Positions 6,001 to 9,000 of a stretch of DNA of 17,115 nucleotides are shown piece after piece; positions within the stretch are counted from its first letter, which is position 1; each line of letters opens with the position of its first letter. Source of the stretch: a virus (Duplodnaviria > Heunggongvirae > Uroviricota > Caudoviricetes); the IMG/VR virus record IMGVR_UViG_2695420820_000005; one strand, given 5' to 3'. The position numbers are program-made.

Positions 6001-9000
6001 CGTTAAAACAGTGGGCAAACCTTTCCCACGGGACTCCCGGGCACCGGAGAGGTGGCCATCAGGGACCATTACCGTCAGGGTTTATGACGATCAGCCGTTT
6101 GATCGGCAAATTGTTATTCNGCTGACGTTCGTGCAGGACCGACAGTCGGATAAGGTGTGGGCCTATAACCGCAGTAATGTGGTGATGCCGGATGATGGCG
6201 CGCCGTTCCGCTACAGTTTCAGCGCCCTGAAAGACCGCCATAATGCCGTTGAGGTGAACTGGATTGACCCGGATAACGGCTGGGAGACGGCGACAGAGCT
6301 TGTGGAGGATACGCAGGCCATTGTCCGTTACGGTCGTAACGTCACGAAGATGGATGCCTTTGGCTGTACCAGCCGGGGGCAGGCACACCGCGCCGGGCTG
6401 TGGCTGATTAAAACGGAACTGCTGGAGACGCAGACCGTGGATTTCAGCGTGGGTGCTGAAGGGCTTCGTCATGTACCGGGCGATGTCATTGAAATCTGCG
6501 ATGATGACTATGCCGGTATCCGCACCGGCGGGCGCGTGCTGGCGGTGAACAGCCAGACCCGGACGCTGACGCTCGACCGTGAAATCACGCTGCCATCCTC
6601 CGGCACCACGCTGATAAGCCTGGTTGACGGGCAGGGGAATCCGGTCAGCGTGGAGGTCCAGTCCGTCACCGACGGCGTGAAGGTAAAAGTGAGCCGTGTT
6701 CCTGACGGTGTTGCTGAATACAGCGTGTGGGGGCTGAAGCTGCCGACGCTGCACCAGCGATTGTTCCGCTGCGTGAGTATCCGTGAGAACGACGACGGCA
6801 CGTATGCCATCACCGCCGTGCAGCATGTGCCGGAAAAAGAAGCCATCGTGGATAACGGGGCGCACTTTGACGGCGACCAGAGCGGCACGGTGAATGGTGT
6901 CACGCCGCCAGCGGTGCAGCACCTGACTGCCGAAGTCACCGCAGACAGCGGGGAATATCAGGTGCTGGCGCGCTGGGACACGCCGAAGGTGGTGAAGGGC
7001 GTGAGCTTCCTGCTCCGTCTGACCGTAACAGCGGATGACGGCAGTGAGCGGCTGGTCAGCACGGCCCGGACGACGGAAACCACTTACCGCTTCACACAAC
7101 TGGCGCTGGGGAACTACAGGCTGACAGTCCGGGCAGTAAATGCGTGGGGGCAGCAGGGCGATCCGGCGTCGGTATCGTTCCGGATTGCGGCACCGGCAGC
7201 GCCTGTCACTATTGAACTGATACCGGGGTATTTTCAGATAACGGCGGNNNNNNNNNNNNNNNNNNNNNAAACCACATACCGCTTCAGGCAGCTGGCGCTG
7301 GGGAATTACAGTCTGACAGTCCGGGCGGTAAATGCCCGGGGGCAGCAGGGCGATCCGGCGTCGGTATCGTTCCGGATTGCCGCACCGGCAGCGCTGTCGC
7401 GGATTGAGCTGACGCCGGGCTATTTTCAGATAACCGCCACGCCGCATCTTGCGGTTTATGATCCGACGGTACAGTTTGAGTTCTGGTTCTCGGAAAAGCG
7501 GATTGCGGATATCAGGCAGGTTGAAACCAGCGCCCGCTATCTTGGCACGGCGCTGTACTGGATAGCCGCCAGTATCAATATCAGGCCGGGCCATGATTAT
7601 TATTTTTACGTTCGCAGTGTGAACACCGTTGGCAAATCGGCATTTGTGGAGGCCATCGGTCGGGCGAGCGATGATGCAGAAGGTTATCTGAATTTTTATA
7701 AAGGGTTGATCAATAAAACGCATCTCGGCAAGGAGTTGTGGACGCAGATTGATAACGGTCAGCTTGCGCCGGACCTGACTGAAATCAGGACGTCCATTAC
7801 GAATGTCAGCAATGAAATCACGCAAACCGTCAATAAAAAACTGGAAAATCAGAGTGCTGCAATCCAGCAGATACAGAAAGTTCAGGTTGATACAAATAAT
7901 AACCTGAACAGCATGTGGGCTGTGAAGCTGCAACAGATGAAGGACGGACGCCTTTATATTGCGGGTATCGGTGCCGGTATTGAGAATACGCCAGCAGGAA
8001 TGCAGAGTCAGGTGCTGCTGGCGGCAGACAGGATTGCGATGATTAATCCTGCGAATGGCAACACAAAGCCGATGTTTGTTGGTCAGGGCGATCAGATATT
8101 CATGAACGACGTGTTCCTGAAATGCCTGACGGCTCCGACCATTACCAGCGGCGGTAATCCTCCGGCATTTTCCCTGACACCTGGCGGACGGCTGACGGCG
8201 AAAAATGCCGATATCAGCGGTAACGTGAACGCGAACTCCGGGACGCTCAACAACGTCACGATTAATAAGAACTGTCGGGTTCTGGGAAAATTGTCCGCGA
8301 ACCAGATTGAAGGCGATCTCGTTAAAACAGTGGGCAAACCTTTCCCACGGGACTCCCGGGCACCGGAGAGGTGGCCATCAGGGACCATTACCGTCAGGGT
8401 TTATGACGATCAGCCGTTTGATCGGCAAATTGTTATTCCCGCGGTGGCGTTTCGCGGTGCTAAACATGAGCGGAAGAATAACAATATTTATTCGTCATGC
8501 CGCCTGATAGTGAAGAAAAACGGTGCTGAAATTTATAACCGAACGACCCTGGATAATACGCTGATATATACGGGTGTTATTGATATGCCTGCCGGTCACG
8601 GTCACATGACGCTGGAGTTTTCTGTATCGGCATGGCTGGTAAATGGCTGGTATCCCACAGCAAGTATCAGCGATTTGCTGGTTGTGGTGATGAAGAAAGC
8701 CACTGCAGGCATCACGATTAGCTGAATTTTATAACCCAGATACGGGCACCAGAAATGGTGCCTTTTTTATTGCAGAAAAGCGAGAGGTAATTATGCGTAA
8801 AGTTTGTGCAGCCATTTTGTCCGCAGCCATTTGCCTGGCCGTATCCGGTGCGCCTGCATGGGCGTCTGAACATCAGTCCACGCTGAGCGCCGGGTATCTT
8901 CAGACCCATACTGATATGCCAGGCAGCGATGACCTGAAGGGCATTAACGTGAAATACCGTTATGAGTTTACGGACACGCTGGGGCTGATTACGTCATTCA

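Follow-up and report, generated by a model that had tools for sequence, protein, structure and literature searches.

Does one prophage carry two J genes whose C-terminal receptor-binding domains recognise different receptors? The question arises from a stretch of 17,115 nt (hereafter the window), in which an earlier note described a J gene with its C-terminal region at 8429-8725 and a paralogue with its own at 11700-12002. Our analysis upheld the two divergent J ends but not their tandem arrangement, as the modules belong to separate prophages. The window is very probably a scaffold from a short-read draft assembly of Shigella sonnei in which two lambdoid prophages were chained through N gaps, making the tandem J an artefact.

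Assembly structure of the window

Four runs of N interrupt the window (1954-1976, 6120, 7248-7268 and 10012), and colinearity with finished genomes breaks at each of them. These N's, together with finished genomes from other isolates, lead us to infer the following scaffolding. Five contigs (A-E; Table 1) from two lambdoid prophages would be linked through the four gaps, in a scaffold delimited by an IS element on either side. Contigs B and D would be overlapping J pieces of prophage 1, an IS-eroded remnant carrying receptor-binding module 1, and contigs C and E overlapping J pieces of prophage 2, which carries module 2; contig A would change partway from prophage 1 to prophage 2. Finished S. 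sonnei chromosomes hold a single J of normal length at each of two distant loci. In the finished chromosome CP104423.1, these genes encode 1159 and 1165 aa (normal) and lie ~0.69 Mb apart, with contig E matching at 1.30 Mb and contigs B and D at 1.99 Mb. Mixed-culture contamination was rejected because both loci are present in one finished chromosome.

Table 1 Features of the window, with contigs and gaps, listed by position.
Feature	Coordinates	Strand	Description
Contig A	1..1953	+	Probable chimeric consensus; 121-aa ORF, M, L, 5' K
121-aa ORF	7-372	+	Contig A, just upstream of M
M	372-701	+	Contig A
L	711-1409	+	Contig A
K, 5' part	1414-1953	+	Contig A
Gap, 23 N	1954..1976	.	Inside gene K
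Contig B	1977..6119	+	3' K, I, J codons 1-1064; module-1 prophage
I	2264-2866	+	Contig B
J codons 1-1064	2927-6119	+	Contig B; ends '...DRQIVI', within the diverged module
Gap, 1 N	6120	.	Probable false join from prophage-1 J codon 1064 to prophage-2 mid-J
Contig C	6121..7247	+	Internal J fragment, module-2 prophage
Gap, 21 N	7248..7268	.	Flanks cover the same part of J
Contig D, part 1	7269..8725	+	3' J, module-1 prophage; duplicates contig B 4950-6119
Receptor-binding module 1	8252..8725	+	157 aa + stop; VT1-Sakai / gpJ-1A2 type; starts NVT
lom	8793..9392	+	Intact, 199 aa, module-1 prophage; Pfam Ail_Lom 1-199/199, E = 4e-129
stf stub	9456..9782	+	Side tail fibre, 108 aa; IS insertion at ~9767/9768
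IS21-family element, left end	9768..10011	+	HTH domain hits; contig D ends inside
IstA N-terminus	9869-10009	+	Within the IS21-family left end
Gap, 1 N	10012	.	Probable false join from IS element to prophage-2 mid-J
Contig E, part 1	10013..12002	+	Last 662 J codons, module-2 prophage
Receptor-binding module 2	11511..12002	+	163 aa + stop; phage 434 (h434) type; starts NVT
lom'	12073..12555	+	Truncated, 160 aa; Pfam Ail_Lom 1-159 of 199
Stf	12654..15737	+	Side tail fibre, 1027 aa, module-2 prophage; Pfam phage_tail_N, Phage_fiber_2, Collar
Tail fibre assembly protein	15737..16318	+	193 aa; Pfam Caudo_TAP, E = 5e-44
IS1, first 48 nt	17068..17115	+	Scaffold terminates inside IS1

Each contig was compared with the finished loci. 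Contig E (10013-17115) matched the prophage-2 locus of CP104423.1 at 100% over 7103 nt (L006 7360-14462), where J encodes 1165 aa. Contig B gave one ungapped match of 99.7% to the module-1 prophage of the same chromosome (L016 5714-9856) and to S. sonnei FORC_011 (L012 4841-8983). The whole of contig D matched L016 8687-11429 at 99.1% and shared a 1171-nt overlap with contig B (98.1% identity). Contig C was 99.2% identical to L006/L008 6919-8040, as against 94.9% to L016, and repeats contig E 10013-10693 at 98.7%. Contig A was 97.4% identical to the module-1 prophage (L016 3908-5860); positions 1-707 were identical, and the 50 mismatches in 708-1953 (49 at or after 1461) all carried the allele of the prophage-2 locus L006. 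Across contigs A-D, 84/84 mismatches to the contig's own prophage were the other prophage's allele (50/50 in A, 5/5 in B, 8/8 prophage-1 alleles in C, and 21/21 prophage-2 alleles in D, at 7381-7489). In principle, these allele switches could be real gene conversion between both prophages in the source isolate.

The gaps were then read against the same references. With contig A reaching L016 5860 and contig B resuming at L016 5714, 147 nt of K are present twice; the flanks of this gap (1807-1953 and 1977-2123) form a direct repeat of 84% identity. At 6120, the reference coordinates step back by ~2.1 kb and the prophage changes. The flanks of 7248-7268 (7077-7242 and 7269-7434) represent the same region of J at 89% identity. 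Upstream of the site matching 10012, finished genomes have the remainder of J where the window has an IS element. In a megablast search against complete E. coli genomes (5,426), none matched at least 80% of 9300-10011, a stretch that includes the stf/IS junction ending contig D. This at first argued against an E. coli origin, and exact-protein matches then led to S. sonnei, with strain names confirmed in PMC5447701. An exact-match scan of genome contigs for the stf/IS junction gave no hit.

A real layout would require one prophage with a partly triplicated J and two tandem cassettes, forming a dual-specificity or switchable tail tip. Such a layout would agree with the ORF at 2927-8725 staying open through two junctions and with J, lom and the start of stf repeating in the same order and on the same strand. 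However, the 1932-aa ORF crosses the N gaps at 6120 and 7248-7268, and the chance of it being in frame is ~1 in 9. A tandem duplication would show uninterrupted junctions, repeated in independent assemblies, whereas 4/4 junctions here contain N's, and sister draft assemblies have other impossible J layouts, each different, with N's at the joints. Moreover, the contig pairs B/D and C/E each represent, as overlapping copies, one of the two J genes in finished chromosomes, IS and not J comes after contig D, and no invertase gene or inverted cassette was seen in the window's ORF listing. We therefore give a real layout next to no credence and favour the chained scaffold. Since the five contigs would interleave two lambdoid prophages, the 1932-aa "J" would be a chimera and not the single gene first described, and the C-terminus at 11700-12002 would not belong to a nearby second copy, as it follows the N at 10012 that joins an IS element to mid-J. 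More generally, IS- and prophage-rich Shigella and E. coli drafts can yield oversized chimeric J ORFs and spurious tandem paralogues, and N characters, single ones included, flag false joins in draft scaffolds.

Two J genes with different receptor-binding modules

Both J-type C-termini, ending at 8725 and 12002, were confirmed, as was their divergence. After the FDRQ motif they share 36% identity (38/105 aligned columns) and are 33% (module 1) and 29% (module 2) identical to lambda J. The whole swapped modules are 40% identical to each other, with 41% (module 1) and 38% (module 2) to lambda. The previously described regions, 8429-8725 and 11700-12002, represent the last two thirds of modules 1 and 2. 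The skeleton that they were said to share (IDMP.G.G..L.F ... KK...GI.I) is real and also present in lambda, 434, VT1-Sakai and A8 gpJ.

DNA alignment of both copies revealed a sharp module boundary at ~8269-8275 / 11528-11534. At 8269 / 11528, identity drops from 82-93% to 52-57%, and it recovers at ~8687-8713 / 11964-11990, near the stop codon; the divergent block thus starts ~160 nt earlier than first stated. The transition at 10780-11000, which the earlier note took for a recombination boundary, adjoins an assembly path-switch and not the module junction. The 21 prophage-2 bases of contig D produce, immediately upstream of that transition, a false 100% stretch between 7369-7468 and 10628-10727, and the consistent presence of the other prophage's allele at contig mismatches means that the proposed boundary rests on a stretch distorted by path-switching.

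The swapped block corresponds to the entire Ig-like receptor-binding domain (Pfam PF12421, Ig_GpJ_C; cut-off, 26.2 bits). Module 1 matched this profile with E = 1e-36 (126.4 bits, profile 2-135 of 135) and module 2 with E = 1.6e-25 (90.2 bits, profile 1-134 of 135). Against solved structures, module 1 gave E = 1.8e-81 with PDB 9wca ("A8 gpJ") and 1.1e-58 with lambda J (8xcj), and module 2 gave 4.7e-59 and 2.4e-50, respectively. PDB 9wca, 8xcj and 8iyk aligned end to end with the modules (E = 1.8e-81 to 2.8e-49), which at the level of sequence places both in the Ig-like J fold. Both fragments in the window have the domain order Ig_J, Ig_J_second, Phage_Tail_Tip and then PF12421 at the C-terminus, as do the J genes found intact in finished genomes (1159 and 1165 aa).

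Neutral drift of one domain, with no module exchange and equal specificity, would fit the single Pfam family and the conserved framework common to both modules. Yet the fall in identity occurs between adjacent 100-column windows and is followed by an equally abrupt recovery near the stop, and each module is 92-100% identical to unrelated phages or strains while being 40% identical to the other. This abrupt drop, together with the high identity to unrelated phages, indicates a mosaic pattern and not clock-like drift. In addition, A8 and 1A2 differ experimentally in the OmpC alleles they accept. Drift alone is thus very unlikely, and the exchange of the C-terminal receptor-binding module as a cassette relative to lambda is supported. 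In our model, the two prophage J genes would be ~90% identical in DNA except for a ~450-nt cassette encoding the C-terminal Ig-like receptor-binding domain. Homologous recombination in conserved flanks, namely the part of J encoding the beta-prism upstream and the last J codons with lom downstream, would pass such cassettes between lambdoid phages.

Similar DNA (at least 80% identical) was present in 3365/5426 complete E. coli genomes (62%) for module 1 and in 2106/5426 (39%) for module 2. LC567841.1, with tandem prophages, contains both module types in one record.

Genes and IS elements around the modules

The two prophages differ in the state of their neighbouring genes (Table 1). In the module-1 prophage, IS elements replace the interval from the Q antiterminator gene to the 121-aa stub just before M, and the side tail fibre gene is likewise IS-interrupted. 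The stf stub matches Pfam phage_tail_N over 1-104 of 134, its likeness to intact stf genes ends at 9767, and an identical 108-aa product is annotated in S. sonnei FORC_011. At related loci (L019 and L025), IstA (rve, Mu-transpos_C_2) and IstB_IS21 are encoded downstream. The suggestion that one J copy may be non-expressed debris is partly borne out, in that the module-1 prophage is an IS-eroded remnant.

In the module-2 prophage, alignment attributed the truncation of lom' to an 83-nt deletion between CTGGCG repeats; the 160-aa form is also annotated in finished S. sonnei genomes. The exact 1027-aa Stf protein is found in S. sonnei 53G, 75/02 and others. The sequence GGTGATGCTGCCAACTTACTGAT, which we take to be the left end of IS1, starts at 17068, and in the finished genome IS1 genes are called from L006 14470.

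Receptor use

The closest characterised relatives of both modules use OmpC and not LamB, which agrees with the earlier view that both differ from the lambda version and speaks against the proposal that the two copies use different receptors. Phage 434 J uses OmpC, as do lambda h434 hybrids (PMC3509688, PMC11101478), and the 434-type module 2 would by homology mediate OmpC-dependent adsorption. For module 1, of the VT1-Sakai / 1A2 type, relatives of 92-93% identity likewise point to OmpC. Its identity to gpJ 1A2 is ~93%, calculated with a 1A2 sequence (supplement) rebuilt from OCR text with frameshifts, in which four residues are uncertain. As a lambda J fusion, gpJ 1A2 supported OmpC-dependent delivery (Brödel et al. 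2024, Nature 632:877; PMC11338833) in a lamB/ompC deletion strain with OmpC variants on a plasmid, and it delivered to the EDL933 OmpC variant, not to K-12 OmpC (PMC11338833). A 2026 receptor-prediction preprint deals with Drexlerviridae gpJ and excluded lambda J from its alignment.

One module might still use OmpC and the other another outer-membrane protein. The modules are just 40% identical, a variable segment sets module 1 apart from 1A2, the form that was tested, and lambda J is known to gain OmpF as a receptor through small changes (discussed in PMC11101478). The nearest tested relatives nonetheless all use OmpC, from 434 (94%) and 1A2 to the more distant A8, making a second receptor protein unlikely. 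As the tested relatives of both modules use OmpC, the difference probably lies in the OmpC alleles recognised or in the binding mode, not in the receptor protein. By homology to 8xcj and 9wca, a J trimer would present three Ig-like domains, with variable loops entering a trimeric outer-membrane porin, and porin binding would trigger tail-tip opening, as suggested by lambda J and A8 gpJ. The conserved framework (FDRQ, NG, IDMPxGxG, KKxxxGI) would build the fold, and the diverged segments would set specificity.

Given the segment that differs from 1A2, module 1 could accept a different range of OmpC alleles, or even a different receptor. We consider it quite unlikely, however, that this allele recognises a set of OmpC variants or a porin other than that of 1A2/VT1-Sakai while its intact J-lom block acts as a donor cassette for incoming lambdoid phages. 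If so, lambdoid phages, including Stx phages, could capture the J-lom of the remnant by recombination, altering their host range. Two apparently OmpC-type modules co-reside in S. sonnei. This may help in the selection of natural J modules with which to engineer lambda particles and raises no new question.

Comparison with characterised J proteins

Both modules are of already known types, and cassette exchange of the J receptor-binding domain is known among lambdoid prophages. Module 1 is 92% identical to J of VT1-Sakai (Sp15), and 1A2 itself is ~99% VT1-Sakai-like. A 14-residue segment of module 1 differs from FSGAKHEKEHTDIY of VT1-Sakai and 1A2, where the residue of 1A2 opposite the first F of the segment is unreadable, and there are four scattered substitutions. 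Within this comparison, an 11-residue segment of module 1 stands against SGAKHEKEHTD in 1A2 and may be in a contact loop; a small number of E. coli strains, O121 and related, share it. E. coli O121 201805972 (L001) and CFSAN029787 carry the module-1 allele at 100% identity. The engineered 1A2-lambda J fusion was made at residue 964, and the natural boundary here lies ~16 codons downstream.

Over its 163 aa, module 2 has 94% identity to phage 434 J (~10 substitutions), and it is 99% identical to that of E. coli NCTC9967. Across the last 95 aa, identity is 96.8% to phage 434, 95.8% to "Lambda h434 imm21" and 100% to phages 2851, mEp460_ev081 and several Stx2 phages; the 434-type module is also known in phage 2851, mEp460, cdtI and several Stx2 phages. 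Module 2 occupies the same place as its phage 434 counterpart, at the end of J with lom and stf next, although module 2, unlike phage 434, sits in an S. sonnei prophage with a truncated lom.

Lambda J, solved in complex with LamB (PDB 8xcj/8xck), has the same PF12421 domain and aligns over its full length, although lambda binds LamB. The modules are 38-41% identical to lambda J and 44-61% to A8 gpJ (PDB 9wca/9wcb), with module 1 at 61%, and conserved framework motifs are common to all of them. Presumably, judging from these alignments, modules 1 and 2 adopt the same trimeric Ig-like fold and use the same trigger mechanism as lambda J and A8 gpJ.

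Two prophages are joined in one scaffold

The tail module of the window is lambda-like in its ORF list (M, L, K, I, J, lom, stf and tfa), although its 'J' ORF spans 1932 aa against 1132 aa in lambda. A second J-like ORF lies downstream, and the translations of the window ORFs contain X residues. Four runs of N divide the window into five contigs. The gaps lie between direct repeats, colinearity is broken at every one of them (4/4), and BLAST among the contigs showed that they overlap in gene coordinates: contigs B and D share ~1170 nt of the J gene of prophage 1, and C and E ~680 nt of that of prophage 2, the two lambdoid Shigella sonnei prophages carrying modules 1 and 2. 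The chance of the frame staying open across the two joins of the 'J' ORF is about 1 in 9.

Finished S. sonnei chromosomes were reached through exact-protein look-ups, and the contigs were then mapped onto one of them, CP104423.1 (53G, FORC_011 and 75/02 are S. sonnei strains; PMC5447701). Contig E matched a locus at ~1.30 Mb over all of its 7103 nt. This locus carries V-G-T-H-M-L-K-I, J (1165 aa), stf (1027 aa) and tfa, and in three sister genomes (L007-L009) a truncated lom of 160 aa is called between J and stf. Contig C matched the same J gene, and contigs B and D a second locus, at ~1.99 Mb, whose J is of normal size (1159 aa). The N runs are thus scaffold joins linking contigs of two prophages, and neither the 1932-aa J nor its 'tandem paralogue' is real; what the earlier note took for a J paralogue belongs to a separate prophage (~1.30 versus ~1.99 Mb).

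Features of the window and their matches in CP104423.1
Feature	Position	Match in CP104423.1	Mismatches carrying the other prophage's allele	Observation
Contig A	1-1953		50/50	Start (1-60) beside an IS3-family element
N run (23 N)	1954-1976			147 nt of gene K duplicated, 84% identity
Contig B	1977-6119	~1.99 Mb, 99.7%	5/5
'J' ORF	2927-8725
N run (1 N)	6120			J codon 1064 of prophage 1 to ~2.1 kb back, into prophage 2 J
Contig C	6121-7247	~1.30 Mb, 99.2%	8/8
N run (21 N)	7248-7268			Back to prophage 1, ~165 nt overlap, 89% identity
Contig D	7269-10011	~1.99 Mb, 99.1%	21/21
Second J-like ORF	9936-12002
N run (1 N)	10012			IS21-family transposase start fused to mid-J
Contig E	10013-17115	~1.30 Mb, 100%
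lom, prophage 2	12073-12555			83-nt deletion
Between tfa and IS1	16320-17067			AT-rich (~29-44% GC), without a convincing ORF
IS1, first 48 nt	17068-17115			Window stops here

Short-read assembly breaks contigs at repeats, and both scaffold ends are set by repeats. The contigs themselves are mixed: all 84 of the 84 mismatches of contigs A-D to their own prophage are the allele of the other, with clusters at 1461-1953, 4626-4801, 7189-7228 and 7381-7489, so these contigs are path-switched consensus sequences. Genuine gene conversion, with prophages 1 and 2 exchanging alleles in the source isolate, could also have produced the clusters; path-switching during assembly is the most likely origin.

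Three sister S. sonnei drafts (CXFP01000191.1, CXFS01000212.1 and CXFO01000210.1) contain three further J layouts, mutually different, one with an ORF of 1919 aa. Ns mark the joints in two of the three, in the third 150 nt are duplicated with no N present, and four Ns lie within one contig of a sister draft. The artefact looks systematic in this data set, and scrambled J ORFs may have entered protein databases.

State and distribution of the two prophages

In S. sonnei, prophage 1 is reduced to a remnant: all that lay from the Q antiterminator gene to a 121-aa stub immediately 5' of M has given way to IS elements, and an IS21-family element interrupts stf (junction ~9767/9768; window 9456-10011), which retains 104 residues of the N-terminal domain in a 108-aa stub. 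The same stub occurs in FORC_011, and none of 5426 complete E. coli genomes matched at least 80% of the stretch 9300-10011. In prophage 1, both J, as pieced together from contigs B and D, and lom are intact ORFs. In prophage 2 the tail genes are retained from V through tfa. A deletion of 83 nt between CTGGCG direct repeats shortens the lom product to 160 aa; finished S. sonnei genomes have the same gene called, so the deletion is real. In strain 53G, the tail fibre assembly gene is missing 63 nt (15861-15923; 150-aa versus 193-aa product), which are present in the window and in other S. sonnei genomes.

DNA at least 80% identical to module 1 was found in 3365 of the 5426 complete E. coli genomes (median 2 copies), and to module 2 in 2106. 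Many sequenced phages have one or the other type, and a tandem-prophage record (LC567841.1) has both; two J types per genome are routine.

The J genes differ by a receptor-binding cassette

The two divergent J C-termini described in the earlier note are real sequences, 36% identical to each other after the common FDRQ motif and 33% and 29% identical to lambda; their layout, created by N joins between two distant prophages, was wrong. The proposed recombination boundary at 10780-11000 proved spurious. The pattern, with 100% identity between 7369-7468 and 10628-10727 and decay near 10780-11000, coincides with prophage-2 alleles in contig D (7381-7489) and is partly, if not wholly, an assembly artefact. 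The module junction lies elsewhere. DNA identity of the J genes, 80-100% per 100-column alignment window up to 8268 / 11527, falls to 52-57% beyond and is regained at ~8687-8713 / 11964-11990, the last J codons plus lom. These points delimit an exchanged cassette of ~450 nt, starting ~160 nt upstream of where the earlier note had it.

The cassette is a complete Pfam PF12421 domain ('Tip attachment protein J, C-terminal receptor binding domain'), matched full length by both modules (8252-8725 and 11511-12002). End-to-end alignments were obtained with lambda J structures (8xcj, 8iyk; E = 1e-58 for module 1, ~1e-50 for module 2) and with 'A8 gpJ' (9wca; E = 2e-81 and 5e-59). Framework motifs (NVT..NC, GD.VK, FP, DD..FDRQ, NG, IDMPxGxG and KKxxxGI) are conserved with four diverged segments between them, consistent with loops that set specificity on an otherwise constant fold. 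The analysis itself establishes the domain family, the module boundaries and the identity to tested modules; fold, receptor and trigger mechanism are inferred from homology. On the model of the homologous lambda J-LamB complex (PMC11101478), the J trimer tip would comprise three Ig-like domains whose bottom loops enter the extracellular lumen of a trimeric porin; on binding, the domain bases would spread, and the signal would be relayed upwards through the central fibre, causing the tail tip to open.

Both modules resemble characterised OmpC-binding types

Module 2 (163 aa) shares 94% identity with phage 434 J and 99% with that of E. coli NCTC9967. Over the last 95 aa it matches phages 2851, mEp460_ev081 and several Stx2 phages at 100% and 'Lambda h434 imm21' at 95.8%. 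OmpC is the receptor of phage 434 and of lambda hybrids with 434 J (PMC3509688, PMC11101478). Module 1 (157 aa) is 100% identical to J of E. coli O121 201805972, 92% to VT1-Sakai (Sp15) J, 61% to A8 gpJ and 41% to lambda. In the O121 prophage that has this module (L001, 12723-14474), the tail fibre genes are followed directly by an ipaH-type T3SS effector gene.

Brödel et al. (2024, PMC11338833) fused the C-termini of natural gpJ proteins to lambda J at residue 964; DNA delivery by A8 and 1A2 goes through OmpC, and 1A2 works with the EDL933 OmpC variant but not with K-12 OmpC. Module 1 is ~93% identical to 1A2, whose protein we rebuilt across OCR frameshifts from the DNA printed in their supplement. 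Given this close kinship to the tested 434 and 1A2 modules, both modules are probably OmpC types rather than LamB types. Of the receptor swap suggested earlier, exchange relative to lambda stands, with a non-LamB receptor likely by homology; different receptors for the two copies are unsupported, as the tested relatives of both use OmpC. Both modules are already known and characterised, with nothing new among them. The main difference between module 1 and 1A2 lies in a single segment (in module 1 [11 protein letters not shown], in 1A2 SGAKHEKEHTD).
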